A stretch of 64,000 nt of DNA, taken from an uncultured Pseudomonadota bacterium. GTDB taxonomy: Bacteria; Pseudomonadota; Gammaproteobacteria; Enterobacterales; Succinivibrionaceae. Every line of letters begins with the position of its first letter. Position 1 is the first letter of the stretch. The stretch covers positions 251 through 64,250 of the forward strand of contig ONIT01000001.1 of assembly GCA_900317945.1 (NCBI GenBank), in the 5' to 3' direction. The position numbers were made by a program, and so were the translations under genes. Shown one piece after another: positions 3,050-45,308 of this stretch. The notes under the pieces were generated by a model. It made no database searches. It had not been told where the DNA came from and saw nothing but the letters and a program-made list of their open reading frames with translations.

Positions 3050-4486
3050 TCAGCCTTTCCAGAAAGAGGGGAACAGGAGAACAAGGGCAGTCAGGAACTC
3101 AAGGCGCCCCAGCATCATATCGGCAGACAGTATTATTCTGCCGGCATCCGGAATGCCTCCGTAGAATCCTGAGCCCAGGGAGCCGCCGAATCCCGGTCCG
3201 ACATTGGCGAGCGCTGACACCGTGCCGGTTATGCTCTCAGAGAGCGGCACTCCCATTACGCAGAGCGCCGCTGAGCTCAGGATCATCACTGCAATGAAGC
3301 TGAACTCGTAGGCAACAAGCGATCCCACAACTTCGCTGTCAATCGGCTTCCCGTTGTATTTCTGCGGTATCACCGACTTCGGATGAATAAGCGGCCTGCA
3401 CTCCATCCTGAAAATGGAATAGGCAAGCTGCAGGCGGAAAATCTTGATCCCGCCCGAAGATGATCCGGAGCAGGCGCCTATTGGCAGGATCAGCAGGATA
3501 ATCAGGATGGCGAACGGCCCGTATGACCACCAGTCTCCTGTGTAGTAGCCGGTAGTAGTTATTATCGACGCTACGGTGAGAGCTGATGTGCGGATGGAGT
3601 CGCTGACGCCAAGCCCGTTTCCGAGAATGAGCCAAAGTGCCAGCATCACTGATGCTGCGATAAATATCCGGAGAAAGGTCCTTACCTGGCTGTCATTGAG
3701 GAGCTCTGGGCTCATCGACTTGAAGCTTCTCACGTAAAGTATGAAGGGAAGACCGGAGAGCAGCATGAATACCACCGCAACCCACTGGGCGGCCGGGCCG
3801 AATGCGGTGATGGAGGCGTTCCTTGTCGAGAACCCTCCGGTCGCCACGGTGGTGAATGCATGGTTTATCGCGTCGAACACCGGCATGCCGGTAAGCCTGT
3901 AGGAGAGAACGCAGAGCAGCGTTATGGTCATGTAGGTCAGCACTATGTTCTTAGCGAGTGTCGAGGTCCTGGGCGTGTCCTTGGTCCTTTCCGAGAATTC
4001 AGTGCGGAAGAGCTTCATGCCTCCGACATTCATTGCGGGGAGTACGGCGATCGCGATGATGATGAATCCGATCCCTCCGATCCACTGCAGGATTGAGCGC
4101 CAGAGGAGTACTGATCTCGGCACTGACTCAACGTCCGGAATCACCGACGCACCCATCGTTGTTAGCCCTGACATGGTCTCGAAGACAGCTCCGGTGAAGT
4201 CAAGGCTTGTAAGGAGCCAGATGGGAAGCGCGCCGAACAGGCAGCCCAGGATCCAGACCGAGCTCGTCAGTATGAACATGTCCCTCATCGAAAGGGAGAA
4301 ATGCCTGGGCCTTGCCGAGTGCGTCAGGATGAATGCGACTGACTCTGTGATGACGAACGAGGCGAAGAACCTGGAGAGTCCTTCTGACGCGGTGAAGAAG
4401 CAGTAGATTATGGGGATCCACATGAACACCGCGAGCTTCGAGAGGATGAGGCCGAGCATCGTGACTATTGATCTGATGTTGAGCAT
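3050..4486 (-). CDS. trkH: Trk-system K+ uptake protein TrkH
   Basis: A 478-aa polytopic membrane protein with repeated TTxG / GGxS selectivity-filter-like motifs (MSGLTTMG, TVATGGFS, ITTTGY, SSSGGIK). It lies directly downstream of trkA. Confidence 0.88.
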   Translation of the reverse strand: MLNIRSIVTMLGLILSKLAVFMWIPIIYCFFTASEGLSRFFASFVITESVAFILTHSARPRHFSLSMRDMFILTSSVWILGCLFGALPIWLLTSLDFTGAVFETMSGLTTMGASVIPDVESVPRSVLLWRSILQWIGGIGFIIIAIAVLPAMNVGGMKLFRTEFSERTKDTPRTSTLAKNIVLTYMTITLLCVLSYRLTGMPVFDAINHAFTTVATGGFSTRNASITAFGPAAQWVAVVFMLLSGLPFILYVRSFKSMSPELLNDSQVRTFLRIFIAASVMLALWLILGNGLGVSDSIRTSALTVASIITTTGYYTGDWWSYGPFAILIILLILPIGACSGSSSGGIKIFRLQLAYSIFRMECRPLIHPKSVIPQKYNGKPIDSEVVGSLVAYEFSFIAVMILSSAALCVMGVPLSESITGTVSALANVGPGFGGSLGSGFYGGIPDAGRIILSADMMLGRLEFLTALVLLFPSFWKG

Positions 4487-36925: not shown

Positions 36926-37174
36926 TTCAATTTATGCGGACGGTTGCCGGTCACATCGTGATCCGGTTGCTGTCTTTGCCTTTTTAAGGCAGAGGCTCTG
37001 TCTGCAGTGCCAGAACCAGCATCACTGACTGTTTACCGGACAACGGTGATCTTTCGCCTCATGTCCCGGCGGTGTCTGTTTCTGGATGAAATGTCAAAGT
37101 AGTGCACTAGTTCCGCCGTGTATCCTGAACGGGCTTTACGGCGGTGTATTTTAATTTTTGTTAGGAGTGTCATA

Positions 37175-37531
37175 GTGGCCCGTATAGCTGGCATTAACGT
37201 TCCTGATCAGAAGCATGCCGTAATTGCGCTTACCAGTATCTATGGTATCGGCCGCAATCGCGCATCCGACATCCTTAAGGCTGCCGGTCTTACTGACGAC
37301 GTTAAGTTTGCTGATCTCGCAGAGGATCAGATTGATAAGGTTCGCGCTGAAGTTGCCAAGTACACAGTCGAAGGCGATCTCAGGCGTGAAGTCTCCATGA
37401 ATATCAAGAGTCTTGTTGATCTCGGCTGCTACCGCGGTGTTCGTCATCGCCGCGGTCTTCCTGTACGCGGACAGCGTACCAAGACCAACGCGCGCACCCG
37501 CAAGGGACCGCGCAAGCCCATCAAGAAGTAA
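37175..37531 (+). CDS. rpsM: 30S ribosomal protein S13
   Basis: ORF 37118, trimmed to the GTG at 37175, which follows AGGAG. (M)[25 protein letters not shown] matches S13. Confidence 0.96.
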
Positions 37532-39719: not shown

Positions 39720-40166
39720 ATGCGTCATCGTTTAAGCGGCCGTCAGCTTGGCCGTGACGGTTCTGCCCGCAAGGCGCTCTTCCGTTCGCTGACCTGTGCT
39801 CTCGTTCGTGAGGAGCAGATTAAGACTACTCTCCCCAAGGCCAAGGAGCTGAGACGCTTCGTTGAGCGCCTTATTACCATTGCCAAGGTTGACTCTACCG
39901 CTCACCGCCGTCTTGTATTCTCAAGAGTTGCGGATGCCAAGTGCGTAGACAAGCTCTTCACCGTTATCGGACCCCGCTTTGCCAAGACCCAGCGTCCCGG
40001 CGGATACACCCGCATCCTCAAGTGCGGATTCCGTCCCAGCGATGCTGCTCCCATGGCTTATGTCCTTTTCAGCGACACTGCTGATCTCGAGAAGATCGCT
40101 GACAAGAAGGATGAGGGTGCAGAGACCGTAGAGGCACAGCCTGCAGCTGAGGCTAAGGCCGAGTAA
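39720..40166 (+). CDS. rplQ: 50S ribosomal protein L17 (acidic C-terminal tail)
   Basis: [24 protein letters not shown]...[19 protein letters not shown] matches L17. It has an extra tail, [21 protein letters not shown]. Confidence 0.97.
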
Positions 40167-40192: not shown

Positions 40193-40232
40193 GAGGGGGG
40201 CAGAAATGCTCCCCTTTTTTTGTTTTTTTACT
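40193..40232 (+). terminator. terminator after rplQ
   Basis: GGGGGGC-agaaat-GCTCCCC is an imperfect GC stem, followed by TTTTTTTGTTTTTTT. Confidence 0.65.
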
Positions 40233-40281: not shown

Positions 40282-40290
40282 TGCTAGAAT
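40282..40290 (+). promoter_or_regulatory. candidate extended -10 promoter for the Zn-ribbon repeat-protein gene
   Basis: TGcTAGAAT lies 25 nt upstream of the ATG at 40315, with an AGGT ribosome-binding site between them. Confidence 0.4.
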
Positions 40291-40314
40291 TTGACCAAAT
40301 TTATAGGTAAGAAA

Positions 40315-42210
40315 ATGGCAACTTCAACTAAATCTTCTCTTAATCTTATATGTCCCTGCTGCGGCCAGAAAATGAGGCGCAGAAGATGGGATTACGTCTG
40401 TTCAGATGAGAAGTGCGGTTTTGTGGTGAAGCGCACTTATCATGGCCATGACTTCACCGATGACGAGCTTGGGAGCCTCGTCAATGACGGCATGCAGCTC
40501 GAGCTGACTGACTGCACGGACAAGAACGGCCTGGCAATGCCGGTCAAGGTGTCTGTTGACAGGAACCGCAAGTCAAAGGACGGCTGGGCTGCCGAGTTCT
40601 ATCCTCATGTCCGTGTCGCCTGTTGCCTATGCGGACAGGAGCAGTTTTACGAGTATCCTGACTATTTCCAGTGCCGCTGCTGCGGTCTCAAGATTGTAAA
40701 GACCCTGATGAAGAAGAGCTTCTCGCCGGCTGAGCGCCTTCAGCTGATGGAGAAGGGCTATCTGCCAAAGGCCGGGGACTTTTACCGTAACAACGGCACC
40801 GAGCTGCAGACTGCAGTTAAGGTTGACCCTGTAAACAAGATCCTGATGCTTGATCCTGGTGAGACCGGTGCTGAGGAGTGCCGCCGCAGGGAGGCTGCAA
40901 GGCTTGAGCAGCTGACTCAGTCATCAGCGCCTGAGGCTCCTGCTGCAGTTTCCGAGGAAAAAGAGAACAGGCCTCCGGTGCAGAGCGCACCAGATGTTGA
41001 GCCAGTCTCTGAAGCTCAGCCTGCTCCGTCACTCAATACGTCAGGCGCATCCGGAAGCAGTGAAAAGACAGTCGATCTGGGCTCATCAGGAGAGTATGGC
41101 AGCCGCGACTTCAACTCCGGGATCATCCATCACAAGGAAGAGGCAGAGCCTGAGAAGAAGGAGAAGGTTGTAGATCTTTCGTCCTCCAGTGAATACGGGA
41201 ACCGTGACTTCAATTCAGGCATCATCCATCACAAGGAAGAGGCAGAGCCTGAGAAAAAGGAGAAGGTTGTAGATCTTTCCTCCTCCAGCGAATACGGGAA
41301 CCGTGACTTCAATTCAGGCATCATCCATCACAAGGAAGAGGCAGAGCCTGAGAAGAAGGAAAAGGTCGTCGATCTGGCGACATCGAATGATGCTGGCAGC
41401 CGTGACTTCAATTCAGGCATCATCCACCATAAGGAAGAGGCAGAGCCTGAGAAGAAGGAGAAGGTTGTAGATCTTTCATCCTCCAGCGAATACGGGAACC
41501 GTAACTTCAACTCAGGCATCGTCCACCACAGGGAAGAGGCAGAGCCTGAGAAGAAGGAGAAGGTTGTTCTGACATCATCGAACGATGCGGGAAGCCGTGA
41601 CTTCAACTCCGGAATTGTCCGTCATAAGGCGGATGCGGGTGCTGAAAAAGCCTCAGCAGAGGCTGAGCCAGCTGCTGTCTCATCAGGCCCCAAAGATGTT
41701 GAGTTCGCTGCCTCATCAGCAGGCAGGGGCTCGTTCCTCTCTGGAATCAGCCATAAGTCTTCAGGTGGCCAGCCTAAGCGCCGTGTCGTAAGCCTCACCT
41801 CGTCAGGCTTCACCGCATCCGGCAGCGCCGAAGTCGCCGAAGGCTCAGAGGAGAGCGCTGCAGCTGGGCATGACTCACAGCCCAAGTTCCAGGCCTCTGC
41901 AAAGGCAAGCTTCGCGAGCGGTATCAAGCGTCTTGACAGCGATTCCACGCTTTCAGAGAGAAGCACGTCGAAGAGCAGCACCGAAAGTGCAGCTGAGGCT
42001 CCTGTGCAGCCGGTGTTTGGCACTGGCTCGCAGGAATCCGCACAGGCTGCTGACGGTGCCGCAGCTCCGCAGCCTGAGCCTGCTGCATCAGAGGAGGCTT
42101 CTTCTGAGGCAGAGTCAAAGCGCGGGCTTAAGGAAGTCGGAAAGGGGCTGCTTGAGAAAGGAAAGGGGCTCTTCGGGCGCTTTATCCATAAGGGCAGGAA
42201 CAATGGCTGA
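40315..42210 (+). CDS. hypothetical protein: 2x Zn-ribbon / topoisomerase-C-repeat-like modules, 6x 33-aa tandem repeats, Ser/Ala/Glu-rich region and a C-terminal amphipathic helix
   Basis: ORF 40291 (TTG), trimmed to the ATG at 40315. The two Zn-ribbon modules are CPCCG-x12-C-x4-CGF..K....G..FTDDELGSLV and CCLCG-x13-CRCCGLKIVK....KSFSPAERLQLM. The repeats are VVDLSSSSEYGNRDFNSGIIHHKEEAEPEKKEK. The tail is GLKEVGKGLLEKGKGLFGRFIHKG. Confidence 0.75.
   Translation: MATSTKSSLNLICPCCGQKMRRRRWDYVCSDEKCGFVVKRTYHGHDFTDDELGSLVNDGMQLELTDCTDKNGLAMPVKVSVDRNRKSKDGWAAEFYPHVRVACCLCGQEQFYEYPDYFQCRCCGLKIVKTLMKKSFSPAERLQLMEKGYLPKAGDFYRNNGTELQTAVKVDPVNKILMLDPGETGAEECRRREAARLEQLTQSSAPEAPAAVSEEKENRPPVQSAPDVEPVSEAQPAPSLNTSGASGSSEKTVDLGSSGEYGSRDFNSGIIHHKEEAEPEKKEKVVDLSSSSEYGNRDFNSGIIHHKEEAEPEKKEKVVDLSSSSEYGNRDFNSGIIHHKEEAEPEKKEKVVDLATSNDAGSRDFNSGIIHHKEEAEPEKKEKVVDLSSSSEYGNRNFNSGIVHHREEAEPEKKEKVVLTSSNDAGSRDFNSGIVRHKADAGAEKASAEAEPAAVSSGPKDVEFAASSAGRGSFLSGISHKSSGGQPKRRVVSLTSSGFTASGSAEVAEGSEESAAAGHDSQPKFQASAKASFASGIKRLDSDSTLSERSTSKSSTESAAEAPVQPVFGTGSQESAQAADGAAAPQPEPAASEEASSEAESKRGLKEVGKGLLEKGKGLFGRFIHKGRNNG
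41068..41658 (+). repeat. in-frame 99-bp tandem repeat, six copies
   Basis: Copies start at 41068, 41167, 41266, 41365, 41464 and 41563, an exact 99-nt period. Copies 2 and 3 differ at only a few bases. The last copy is 96 nt and then diverges. Confidence 0.95.
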
Positions 42211-42526
42211 TGATCTTGACAGCGTAGAGAGCATCTTCAACGAGCTGGCCTCAGACAATCTGCCCGAGGCTGTCATGGCTGAGTACCGAAAGGCATTCGA
42301 GGCAGGATCTGTCACCATAGCCGAAGTGGATCCTGACTACGGCTCGTGGGAGGACAATTCTGATCTCGATGCCTCTGAGCTTGAGTCAAAAGGCTTTTCA
42401 GAGTTTGCCGTATTCGATGAGAATGACAGCGAGGGCAGGATGTTCGCAAGGGTGCTGCTCGATCCGTCATCCCATGAGGCCTTTCTCCGCTGGAATACGG
42501 AATATACGGCCGGGGACGGCTGGTAA
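42203..42526 (+). CDS. small highly acidic hypothetical protein (107 aa)
   Basis: ORF 41870..42526, trimmed to the ATG at 42203, which overlaps the upstream stop by 8 nt. MADDLDSVESIFNELASDNLPEAV...DPDYGSWEDNSDLDASELE is very rich in Asp and Glu. Confidence 0.6.
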   Translation: MADDLDSVESIFNELASDNLPEAVMAEYRKAFEAGSVTIAEVDPDYGSWEDNSDLDASELESKGFSEFAVFDENDSEGRMFARVLLDPSSHEAFLRWNTEYTAGDGW

Positions 42527-42603
42527 TACGCTATACTGATAATTCAGTTTTACACTGGCCCGTCAGTGCGGATTGCTCCGCCATGGCGGGCTTCCTTTTT
42601 CTC

Positions 42604-42933
42604 CTACTCCTCGATATGCTCGAGCCCCTGGCTGATTATGGTCTTTACATGATCATCAGCGAGGGCATACTCGATATTGCGTCCTGATCGGCAGCCTTTC
42701 ACCAGCTTGCTCTGCCTCAGTATTCTGAGCTGGTGCGATACGGCGCTCTGAGTCAGGGAAAGCTCGTCTGAGATCGCCGAGACGCACTTCTGACCCTTTG
42801 CGAGGAGGGTAAGTATTCTGAGCCTGGTCGAGTCTCCGAAAATCTTGAAGAGATCCGCGAGCTCATACATCTTCTCCTCATCTGACTCATCCCCTGCCTC
42901 CTCGTACAGCTCATCCTGTTTATCCTCTGCCAT
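42604..42933 (-). CDS. ArsR/SmtB-family transcriptional regulator
   Basis: LFKIFGDSTRLRILTLLAKGQKCVSAISDELSLTQSAVSHQLRILRQSKLVKGCRSGRNIEYAL is a classic ArsR winged helix-turn-helix. The N-terminal tail is acidic. Confidence 0.9.
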   Translation of the reverse strand: MAEDKQDELYEEAGDESDEEKMYELADLFKIFGDSTRLRILTLLAKGQKCVSAISDELSLTQSAVSHQLRILRQSKLVKGCRSGRNIEYALADDHVKTIISQGLEHIEE

Positions 42934-43163: not shown

Positions 43164-44414
43164 ATGGAGGATGAAACCGCGTCCGTCCTTTTCGCGGAGA
43201 TCGTGAAATTCCTTGAGAACCTCCCTGACGGGGTAGGGCAGACAAGACTTTGCTCCCTTCTCTCGCGAAGCGATCTCGCGGATCTGATCCGCCTGAGGAA
43301 GGCTGCCGGTATTGTCCAGGGGCGCGATATCCGGAATTTCGTGAGGCTGGTCATTCAGAAGAGAACAGCCGGAAGGGGCGCGAACGTGATTCCTTTCCTT
43401 CGCTTCGTCATCCCTTTCCTGACTGATGAGCTCTCCTGCCATTCACCAAGAAGCCGGAAGCTTCTGGATTTATTCCGGGAGTCAACCCGGAACCTTCCGG
43501 GGATCCGCTCATGGACAGAGCACGGCCCGAGCAGCAGCCTGCTGGGGGCCAGTGCCGTCTCGGCTGATTTTTTCTCCGGAGCTGAAAGATCAGGCGATAT
43601 AGCAGGGCCTCAGGAACAGGCAGTAGACACCAAAGCGCTCCTTCCTCTCCTTCGGGCCTCCGTGCTTCCCTCTGGCGAGAGAATAGCTATGGACGAGCCG
43701 GGTGATCTGCATGTCTCGTCATTGCCTGAGGATCTTGATGGCGCATTCCAGAAGCGGGAGGACTCCGGTGTCAGGGATGTCTCAAGGCGGCTCTCCTTCT
43801 GGTATGGCTCCTTTTCCGGAGGGAAGATCCTCTCCTTCGGATCAATGCCTGTAAGGTTCTGCAGCTCGGAGTTCTCGCAGATGCAGTCTGTGGTGCAGGC
43901 CGCAGGCGATACGGCTGATCTGCTTATAGCCTCGGGGATCCTCTCTGAGATATGCCATCATGCAGGTGGTGAAACAGTCTATGTAACTGGCTACGGGCCA
44001 TACGGCACTATCGCGGCGTTTGCGGCCTCGTCCATCCCCGGCGGCTCAGCCCGCGGCGGGCTCAGGGCTGCGGTATTCAATGCGCCGGGACTTTCCGGAT
44101 CAATGATTTCTCTTCTGAGCTGGAAGGCAATATGCGCGGCAGCCGCTTCTACTGAGAATGTCCATTCCTCTCTTGACTGCTATCAGGATACAGGGCTTCA
44201 GATTGGGCACCGGCTGCTGCTTGGAAGGTGCATGGCGGGACAGCGCTCTCCCGCTGAAATGTATGGCTCACTGCAGGAGCTTGCCTCAGGCAGCAGGAAC
44301 GCCGGCACTGCGAGGTCTGCTGCTGAGTCGCTTCTCCGGGAGTCGCTCGGCATGAAGGCAGATGCCATTGCCGGCGGGAGCCTTCCGGAGCAGAGGATCC
44401 CGCGCGCGCCCTGA
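43164..44414 (+). CDS. hypothetical protein (416 aa orphan; degenerate lipase-like elbow motif)
   Basis: A long ORF whose codon usage resembles its neighbours by eye. It is divergent from the ArsR-family gene. I recognise no family. The segment ETVYVTGYGPYGTIAAFAASS resembles hhhTGHSLGG but has no Ser. Confidence 0.5.
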   Translation: MEDETASVLFAEIVKFLENLPDGVGQTRLCSLLSRSDLADLIRLRKAAGIVQGRDIRNFVRLVIQKRTAGRGANVIPFLRFVIPFLTDELSCHSPRSRKLLDLFRESTRNLPGIRSWTEHGPSSSLLGASAVSADFFSGAERSGDIAGPQEQAVDTKALLPLLRASVLPSGERIAMDEPGDLHVSSLPEDLDGAFQKREDSGVRDVSRRLSFWYGSFSGGKILSFGSMPVRFCSSEFSQMQSVVQAAGDTADLLIASGILSEICHHAGGETVYVTGYGPYGTIAAFAASSIPGGSARGGLRAAVFNAPGLSGSMISLLSWKAICAAAASTENVHSSLDCYQDTGLQIGHRLLLGRCMAGQRSPAEMYGSLQELASGSRNAGTARSAAESLLRESLGMKADAIAGGSLPEQRIPRAP

Positions 44415-44428
44415 CGGAGGGCATTGTT

Positions 44429-44977
44429 TCAGATGAAGCCTGCCTTTCCGGCGGACTTCACGTAGGCATCAAGCCTGCTGAGCAGCGTGTCGTCAGCTGA
44501 CGTCCCCATCGCCGAGACCCTGAGGTACTTGCCGTCAAGCGGTGCTACCGTAACCCTGAACGTGCTGTTCCCGACACTGATCTCCGCTGAGGCTGCCTCA
44601 TGCCCGAGAAGCGTGCCTCCCTCGCATTCCTGGGTATCCTTGACTGACAGGTGCTGCAGCTCTTCCCCAAGGATAGCCTCTGCTGACTCCTCGCCATTCT
44701 GGATTTCCCTCAGGGCGACGTTGATCCAGACATAGTTCTGTTTCTTTACCAGGAAGTATTCGGTTATGGTATGTGCCTCTGCAGGATTCGAGATCTTGTA
44801 TACGGAGAACCCCTTGAAGTTCCCGGGCAGGTGCCCGGTCTCATGGTAGAGCTGCTGCCTTCCTGATGGTGACGCTGCCGCAGAGCCGGAGCCGCTCTTC
44901 CTGAGGGCAAAGCGGATGACCGCAATGCAGCAGACCATAACCGCCAGTACAGTAATCAGGCTTAGTGTAGCGCTCAT
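44429..44977 (-). CDS. membrane-anchored hypothetical protein
   Basis: ORF 44429..45007, trimmed to the ATG at 44977 (MSATLSLITVLAVMVCCIAVIRF is an N-terminal transmembrane segment). It starts one nucleotide after the rhodanese stop. Confidence 0.55.
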   Translation of the reverse strand: MSATLSLITVLAVMVCCIAVIRFALRKSGSGSAAASPSGRQQLYHETGHLPGNFKGFSVYKISNPAEAHTITEYFLVKKQNYVWINVALREIQNGEESAEAILGEELQHLSVKDTQECEGGTLLGHEAASAEISVGNSTFRVTVAPLDGKYLRVSAMGTSADDTLLSRLDAYVKSAGKAGFI

Positions 44978-44978
44978 A

Positions 44979-45308
44979 TTACTTTTCCACCGGCATGGTC
45001 TCGGCAAGCTTTTCGAATCCGCCGAGGTTCTCGACGTTCCTGAAGCCTGCGTTCCTCAGAGTCTCGAGGGCAATGCCGGCGCGGTGACCGGATCTGCAGT
45101 AAACCCTGATGGTATCAGTTTCCCTGCTGATATTGAGAGCCTCCGCCCCGTTCAGGATGTTCTGGTACTCGATGTTGAGCGCGCCCTTCAGATGCCCCTC
45201 GCTGAATTCTGCAGGAGTCCTCACGTCGATGAGGTAGTCTGCTGAGAACGCAGAGAATGAGGCGAGCAGCGCAAGTCCGCCTGCAGCCATTGATAAGAGT
45301 TTCTTCAT
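44979..45308 (-). CDS. periplasmic single-domain rhodanese (PspE-like sulfurtransferase)
   Basis: It has a signal peptide (MKKLLSMAAGGLALLASFSAFSA), the motif IDVRTPAEFSEGHLKGALNI, and the active-site loop YCRSGHRAG. Confidence 0.85.
   Translation of the reverse strand: MKKLLSMAAGGLALLASFSAFSADYLIDVRTPAEFSEGHLKGALNIEYQNILNGAEALNISRETDTIRVYCRSGHRAGIALETLRNAGFRNVENLGGFEKLAETMPVEK

Follow-up and report, generated by a model that had tools for sequence, protein, structure and literature searches.

A conserved two-gene operon of gut Succinivibrionaceae joins a protein with topoisomerase-tail-like zinc ribbons to a divergent YciU/HI1450-like acidic protein

What is encoded by the two overlapping genes that stand directly behind the alpha operon in an uncultured bacterium of the Succinivibrionaceae (Gammaproteobacteria, Enterobacterales), and do their products act on each other? 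The question is raised by a 64,000-nucleotide stretch of contig ONIT01000001.1 (assembly GCA_900317945.1, positions 251 to 64,250 of the forward strand), called the window below, in which rplQ is followed by gene A, for a modular hypothetical protein of 631 amino acids (aa), and gene B, for an acidic protein of 107 aa (Table 1). A and B are genuine genes under purifying selection, and they form a conserved operon with translational coupling in the core chromosome. Protein A sets a known, still uncharacterised repeat in a new architecture, and protein B appears to extend a known family by a new and divergent member.

A conserved gene pair behind the alpha operon

An earlier reading of this DNA made from the letters alone (the sequence-only reading) placed a 631-aa frame after the rplQ terminator and behind a promoter-like TGcTAGAAT, and ended it in an 8-nucleotide (nt) overlap with a small Asp/Glu-rich frame of 107 aa. 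Both observations were borne out. An intrinsic-terminator-like hairpin with a T-run closes the alpha operon, and the putative promoter of gene A is an extended -10-like element that was read from the sequence; a two-hexamer promoter scan did not call TG-c-TAGAAT at this position. An AGGT Shine-Dalgarno sequence stands ahead of the ATG of gene A at 40315, and a TTG at 40291 is an alternative start of the same frame, which ends at 42210. The overlap between the gene A stop and the gene B start reads ATGGCTGA. The gene B frame is open for 111 codons 5' of its ATG, within gene A (window 41870-42526, + strand), and for this reason gene B is called as 107, 124 or 179 aa. We take the product as 107 aa because the extension is not kept in the sister species described next and the ATG at 42203 has an AGGA Shine-Dalgarno sequence in front of it.

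The exact 631-aa A protein is present on 14 gut-metagenome contigs. Its cluster at 90% identity has 90 members, the lengths of which vary only by the called start and by one 33-aa repeat more or less. A metagenome scan with the gene B alignment recovered a sole diverged locus, from a sister species (L091), with the gene order rpsD-rpoA-rplQ, A', B', ArsR-family gene and 416-aa gene, which is the same synteny as in the window. The A orthologue at this locus has 544 aa and four repeats. The sister species is represented by an A cluster of 140 members and a B cluster of 20, and its exact B protein is present on 578 contigs. The A/B overlap is identical in the two species and the terminator-like hairpin behind rplQ is also kept. 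The rplQ-A intergenic sequence is about 90% identical between them, with TGTGCTAGAAT, including the promoter-like element, and the Shine-Dalgarno sequence unchanged.

The ratio of nonsynonymous to synonymous divergence (dN/dS) was calculated by the Nei-Gojobori method between the window species and the sister species. The value is lowest within A for aa 1-190 (0.055, at 94% amino-acid identity), rises to 0.14 in the repeats and 0.25 in aa 446-600, and is 0.19 for gene A overall. Gene B has a dN/dS of 0.077, and rpoA, the control, has 0.014. Protein A has no homologues beyond the two sister species and carries the public annotation 'hypothetical protein', which is what an artefact, or a decaying repeat-rich frame without function, would look like. 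Such an origin is hardly credible for a gene pair in which every segment is under purifying selection (dN/dS 0.055-0.40 at a dS of 0.5-1.6) and in which the A frame is intact in >200 cluster members across two species, with Shine-Dalgarno sequence, promoter-like element and overlap all kept. The annotation artefact that the sequence-only reading had allowed for is excluded by this purifying selection and by the conserved intergenic signals.

Outside these two sister gut Succinivibrionaceae the pair was not found. When B and the A N-terminus served as queries in word-indexed protein searches, only the same species came back, and no A- or B-like gene stands at the 80 listed rplQ-linked loci of other Gammaproteobacteria (GTDB genomes; L17 53-67% identical). 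The A-B pairing is absent from the E. coli and Sodalis-like yciU loci and was not found in a limited literature search.

Domain composition of proteins A and B

Profile and pairwise comparisons show aa 1-190 of A to be a homologue of the C-terminal tails found in Topo III-like type IA topoisomerases from plasmids and integrative and conjugative elements (ICEs). As in those tails, aa 11-182 consist of two tandem units, each a Cys4 zinc ribbon followed by a Toprim_Crpt-like segment. The probable zinc ligands are C13, C16, C29 and C34 in unit 1 and C103, C106, C120 and C123 in unit 2; the adjacent C122 is not counted as a ligand because it is Ser in the sister species. The best Pfam match of whole A is Toprim_Crpt (PF13342; E 1.1e-4, 22.5 bits against a gathering cut-off of 32), and the same family is the top match of each unit searched singly, again below the cut-off (unit 1, E 0.01, 16.2 bits; unit 2, E 0.051, 14.0 bits). 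The NCBIfam Topo III model matches A residues 7-94. A tblastn search of plasmids (7.3 Gb) with A 1-190 matched 133 records with a best E of 2e-6; among the matches listed, 25 of 25 lie in genes for a type IA topoisomerase or a 'topoisomerase C-terminal repeat-containing protein', and many span both units. BLASTP aligns A 13-161 with residues 642-794 of a Yersinia plasmid topoisomerase (E 2e-13, 29% identity over 155 aa) in a collinear manner, unit 1 falling on residues 642-725. The Yersinia protein has 815 aa and is composed of Toprim, Topoisom_bac and two Toprim_Crpt domains, the latter scoring 79.6 bits in the matched region. All four Cys align across the 7 units of A, Yersinia and Bacteroides in a unit-level alignment.

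Neither Toprim (PF01751) nor Topoisom_bac (PF01131) was matched by A in the Pfam search, and A is not a topoisomerase because it is without these two catalytic domains. The sequence-only reading had proposed topoisomerase C-terminal repeats of two Pfam kinds. The Toprim_Crpt part of that proposal stood, with PF13342 as the top match, though under its gathering score, and a collinear plasmid topoisomerase tail as its counterpart; the zf-C4_Topoisom part did not, as PF01396 has no match in A even at E <= 1. A sequence search of the PDB with A returned generic zinc ribbons only, and no solved PDB structure was matched by a standalone Crpt protein or by a 7-unit profile. The context of A differs from that of the plasmid and ICE topoisomerases in being chromosomal and in a ribosomal-protein neighbourhood, not on a conjugative element, and its 440-aa repeat region and amphipathic tail are not in the homologues examined. 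Comparable to the A N-terminus is the standalone 'topoisomerase C-terminal repeat-containing protein' WP_011199163.1 of Bacteroides fragilis pBFY46 (L093, 2986-3789), a 267-aa protein with three Zn-ribbon/Toprim_Crpt units in a conjugation locus. An HU-family gene lies at pBFY46 4144-4416, two genes downstream of the 267-aa protein; as HU is the one known partner of the HI1450 family, this co-location may or may not be coincidence. E. coli YrdD is likewise chromosomal, a small protein that consists of nothing but topoisomerase-tail zinc ribbons (three PF01396 domains) and is encoded within about 8 kb of rplQ, but it belongs to the other Pfam family, is without a repeat region or tail and has no detectable similarity to A. 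Orthology of A and YrdD was rejected (BLASTP E 0.14; YrdD scores 180 bits on PF01396 and A none).

The ~440 aa of A that follow the N-terminal units match no Pfam family. Most of this length is an acidic Ser/Ala/Glu-rich region, presumed disordered, that is 55-64% identical in amino-acid sequence to the sister species with a dN/dS of 0.14-0.40 (aa 200-600). Within it are six tandem 33-aa repeats, which Tandem Repeats Finder reports as a 99-nt period with 4.7 copies and 87% matches. Each repeat carries F-x-S-G-[IV]-[IV]-H-H-K and then EAEPEKKEK, conserved as F-x-SG-[IV]-[IV]-HHK-x-EAEPEKKEK. There are 6 or 5 copies within the species, where the proteins are otherwise >99% identical, and 4 in the sister species, and the motif is kept. 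Metagenome contigs often end inside these repeats (L001, L002, L089), and some of the length variants may thus be assembly collapses. Two degenerate echoes of the motif follow. The first, GSFLSGISHK, is GSFLAGVSRK in the sister species, giving a consensus over both species of GSFL[SA]G[IV]S[HR]K. The second (aa 530-540) is part of KASFASGIKRLDSDSTLS, in which 18/18 residues are identical between the species and the flanks are ~55% identical. The conserved F-x-SG-[IV] short motifs in A number eight.

Protein A terminates with a basic amphipathic tail (net charge +6), and no other part of the protein equals its hydrophobic moment, which reaches 0.59 over 18 residues and 0.81 over 11. Its core, G[LF]FGRFIHKG, is kept in the sister species, where the part before the core is shortened. 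The tail has the sequence character of a MinD/FtsA-type amphipathic membrane-targeting sequence, and a membrane role fits the sequence. The form found in the window, GLFGRFIHKG, is patterned like KGFLKRLFGG, the corresponding MinD sequence, and its hydrophobic moment is comparable to that of the FtsA tail; there is no sequence homology to either. The paired Cys4 ribbons, the six repeats with their two echoes and the amphipathic end are thus all present as the sequence-only reading had described them.

Protein B contains 27 Asp+Glu and 6 Lys+Arg (pI 4.05), compared with 30 and 7 in YciU. Profile and alignment evidence points to B as a divergent outlier within the YciU/HI1450 (DUF440) family, the members of which are acidic and are putative mimics of double-stranded DNA (dsDNA). 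Residues 6-97 of the 107 match PF04269 (DUF440) with an E of 1.7e-5 and a score of 25.5 bits, where the cut-off is 27; over the same span NCBIfam NF003469 (HI1450) gives an E of 4.5e-5 and reaches 23.7 bits, where the equivalog cut-off is 103. By BLASTP, B and E. coli YciU are 31% identical across 85 aa (E 7e-5), and hhalign against a profile of 33 family members gives an E of 1.3e-4 and a probability of 54%. The IF-x-ELA-x-DNL motif, FAR-x-L and the hydrophobic core are invariant in a 35-sequence alignment that includes B, the invariant columns being I11, F12, L15, A16, N19, A23, F32, A40, E41, W49, D54, E67 and F81. Besides these motifs (the second in the form FAR-[VI]-L), B shares with the family its length (107 aa) and a predicted helix-helix-strand-helix-three-strand order. 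An AF2 model of B built on a DUF440 alignment has a pLDDT of 74.7 and a pTM of 0.67, and its top PDB match by Foldseek is 1NNV (HI1450; probability 0.91, full-length TM 0.53, E 0.13), a result that is partly circular. The differences from the family are an identity of only ~30% to the Enterobacterales members, an insertion near residue 35 and a C-terminus of WNTEYTAGDGW versus CHILWKE. A phmmer search of 1.8 billion representatives with B retrieved nothing beyond the cluster of B itself and long proteins of biased composition, with no link to canonical DUF440; there was no sequence match in the PDB, phmmer missing 1NNV, and tblastn found no match to B in plasmids. The guess of a DNA mimic in the sequence-only reading agrees with this family assignment. 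Its description of the small protein as uncharacterised was overstated, as NCBI and IMG records already name it 'DUF440 family protein' or 'YciU (UPF0263)'.

The YciU/HI1450 family is widespread in Enterobacterales (335 relatives) and a structure has been solved since 2004. HI1450 binds HU-alpha as a DNA mimic with a Kd of about 3 μM, according to the account of Parsons et al. 2005 given in PMC3643605. The latter reports that no biological function had been proposed for HI1450 as of 2013 and that an E. coli yciU knockout has normal cell shape (PMC3643605), and yciU is still listed as uncharacterised in a 2026 E. coli screen (PMC12924614). Both E. coli and a Sodalis-like contig (L090 4822-6646; L094 2489-4327) have yciU on the strand of clsA (cardiolipin synthase), 34-51 bp behind it, and clsA-yciU is handled in Salmonella as the 'whole clsA operon' (PMC9241728). 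This linkage of a putative DNA mimic to anionic-lipid synthesis is an unexplained association. Gene B departs from the typical yciU context in following gene A and not clsA, and context is not family-defining.

Proposed action of the pair and alternative explanations

The mechanism that we favour, with a probability of roughly 0.4, is that A holds nucleic acid together with the membrane (or a partner) and that B gates the DNA binding of A. The two topoisomerase-type Zn-ribbon/Crpt units would hold the nucleic acid, the C-terminal basic amphipathic helix would attach A to the membrane, or to a partner, as the tails of MinD and FtsA do, and the acidic repeat region would act as a flexible, multivalent spacer. 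Protein B, made from the same mRNA as A, would occupy a basic nucleic-acid-binding surface of A as a DNA mimic and thereby gate it. Bacillus subtilis Noc is a ParB-type DNA-binding protein with an N-terminal amphipathic membrane helix, and the logic proposed for A is analogous: a nucleic-acid module joined to a terminal amphipathic helix could draw DNA, or a complex, to the membrane. The helix is N-terminal in Noc and C-terminal in A, and the two proteins have no sequence homology. The most specific form of the proposal, in which A, anchored in the membrane, serves as a tether for the nucleoid or DNA and has a topoisomerase-derived zinc-ribbon module that is switched off by a co-translated YciU-type DNA mimic, is rather unlikely.

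Several points weigh against the favoured mechanism. The interaction of A with B is inferred from the conservation of their translational coupling. The family matches of both proteins fall under curated cut-offs, and the 1NNV match of the B model is corroboration and not independent proof because the model alignment held DUF440 members. DNA binding by Toprim_Crpt is assumed from the position of the unit in topoisomerases, as no solved structure covers it. A single-sequence AF2 model of A 1-200 has a pLDDT of 41.5. The A N-terminus has a net charge of +1.7, weakly basic or nearly neutral, which makes it a modest target for a B protein with a net charge of -21. The sole experimentally known partner of the YciU/HI1450 family is HU and not a zinc-ribbon protein. 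The A-B module is known from two sister species only, and as yciU is coupled to clsA elsewhere, an A-B partnership, if the two interact, is lineage-specific.

The points on charge and on HU are also the substance of a different explanation, in which B acts on HU or another general DNA-binding protein, like HI1450, and is expressed alongside A without contact between the two. Protein A would then bind DNA, or serve as a scaffold, independently of B. For the HI1450 family, HU-alpha is the one partner that has been demonstrated (PMC3643605), and the A N-terminus is nearly neutral. Operon partners of this family need not touch, because yciU in Enterobacterales sits behind the unrelated clsA. Translational coupling by stop/start overlap tends to favour stoichiometric partners, however, and the overlap in A-B has been kept between species despite a dS of 0.5-0.8 in the flanking coding sequence; nor is there an HU gene within the 64-kb window. 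Independent action of the two proteins is on balance unlikely, if a serious competitor. Less weight still falls on an explanation in which A is a protein-recruiting hub, with zinc ribbons that bind protein and eight F-x-SG-[IV] motifs that dock one client, possibly B. The zinc ribbons of E. coli Topo I bind RNA polymerase, DNA binding by Toprim_Crpt is an assumption, and A has invariant short motifs inside fast-evolving sequence, of which KASFASGIKRLDSDSTLS is the clearest example, in addition to a repeat copy number of 4 to 6 that is typical of multivalent docking arrays. Set against these are the homologues, every listed one of which has its units in a DNA topoisomerase or a conjugation-locus protein. 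The acidic B is itself an unlikely ligand of the repeats because each repeat has a net charge of -3. A hub is quite improbable on this evidence.

Metal handling has even less in its favour. A zinc buffering or storage protein beside a zinc-sensor-like ArsR/SmtB regulator would explain the eight to eleven Cys in the ribbons, the extra Cys adjoining the ribbon ligands, the six or seven His-His pairs that stand in acidic sequence, with HH in every repeat, and the D-x-H-x10-H-x2-E pattern in the neighbouring ArsR-family gene. Ser takes the place of the extra C122 in the sister species, though, and the homology of A is to topoisomerase tails, not metallothioneins. The ArsR-family gene is convergent with A-B and divergent from the 416-aa gene, and the regulator therefore probably does not control A-B and more likely controls the 416-aa gene. 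These considerations make a zinc store a very unlikely role for A.

The A-B locus offers a concrete binary interaction to test, in which a member of the YciU/HI1450 family has a coupled partner with what appears to be a recognisable nucleic-acid-binding module. A tail of the Toprim_Crpt type, known from mobile-element topoisomerases, has here become part of a non-catalytic protein of the core chromosome, which bears on the role of the repeat. If the proposal is true, the A tether gated by B would be the first dedicated target of the YciU/HI1450 family, and the general role of the family may be to gate DNA-binding proteins at the membrane, a role with which the enterobacterial clsA linkage fits. 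The reach of these statements is limited to two uncultured sister species, with every functional step inferred.

Feature coordinates and neighbouring genes

Table 1. Features of the A-B locus and its surroundings, in window coordinates (aa, residues of A unless stated otherwise)
Feature	Position	Strand	Remarks
Alpha_RBS (Rfam RF00140)	37105-37207	+	79 bits; before rpsM
rplQ	39720-40166	+	last alpha-operon gene, upstream of gene A
Intrinsic-terminator-like hairpin + T-run	40193-40216	+	10-pair stem, 6 GC pairs
Extended -10-like element TGcTAGAAT	40282-40290	+	putative promoter; TAGAAT at 40285-40290
AGGT Shine-Dalgarno	40305-40308	+	ahead of gene A ATG
Gene A	40315-42210	+	631 aa; modular hypothetical protein
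Unit 1, Cys4 zinc ribbon + Toprim_Crpt-like segment	40345-40605	+	aa 11-97; PF13342
Unit 2, Cys4 zinc ribbon + Toprim_Crpt-like segment	40612-40860	+	aa 100-182; PF13342
Acidic Ser/Ala/Glu-rich region, presumed disordered	40912-42114	+	aa 200-600; net charge about -26
Six tandem 33-aa repeats	41068-41661	+	aa 252-449
Echo motif 1, GSFLSGISHK	41728-41757	+	aa 472-481
Echo motif 2, KASFASGIKRLDSDSTLS	41902-41955	+	aa 530-547
Basic amphipathic C-terminal tail	42118-42207	+	aa 602-631; core G-[LF]-F-G-R-F-I-H-K-G
Gene A stop/gene B start overlap, ATGGCTGA	42203-42210	+	8 nt
Gene B	42203-42526	+	107 aa; acidic, divergent YciU/HI1450 (DUF440)-like protein
Weak terminator-like hairpin	42577-42590	+	5-pair stem; convergent gap between gene B and ArsR-family gene
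ArsR/SmtB-family regulator gene	42604-42933	-	HTH_5, 58 bits
416-aa gene	43164-44414	+	
192-aa gene	44429-45007	-	

The A-B pair is preceded by SecY and the alpha operon and followed by genes for the ArsR-family regulator, two proteins without a family match, a rhodanese, DarP, PmbA, a glycosyltransferase, Amt and MreB. A horizontal-transfer island or other mobile-element context was rejected, as GC is uniform (0.50-0.60) across the region and the neighbours (SecY, alpha operon, DarP, PmbA, MreB) are core genes. Defence-system and phage readings were rejected as well, there being no meaningful PADLOC or PHROGs match. No paralogue of A or B was found in the 64-kb window. The sequence of the weak terminator-like hairpin behind gene B is not kept in the sister species.

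The Alpha_RBS match before rpsM corresponds to the S4 autoregulatory element that an alpha operon is expected to have. The C-terminal end of the ArsR/SmtB-family regulator, ...ADDHVKTIISQGLEHIEE, fits the D-x-H-x10-H-x2-E pattern of the alpha5 zinc-sensing site of SmtB and CzrA. The two genes without a family match, encoding 416-aa and 192-aa products, are conserved but gave no hit in Pfam or PADLOC and nothing meaningful in PHROGs. Their synteny holds in the sister species and in all metagenome contigs inspected, and the 192-aa product has a hydrophobic segment at its N-terminus.

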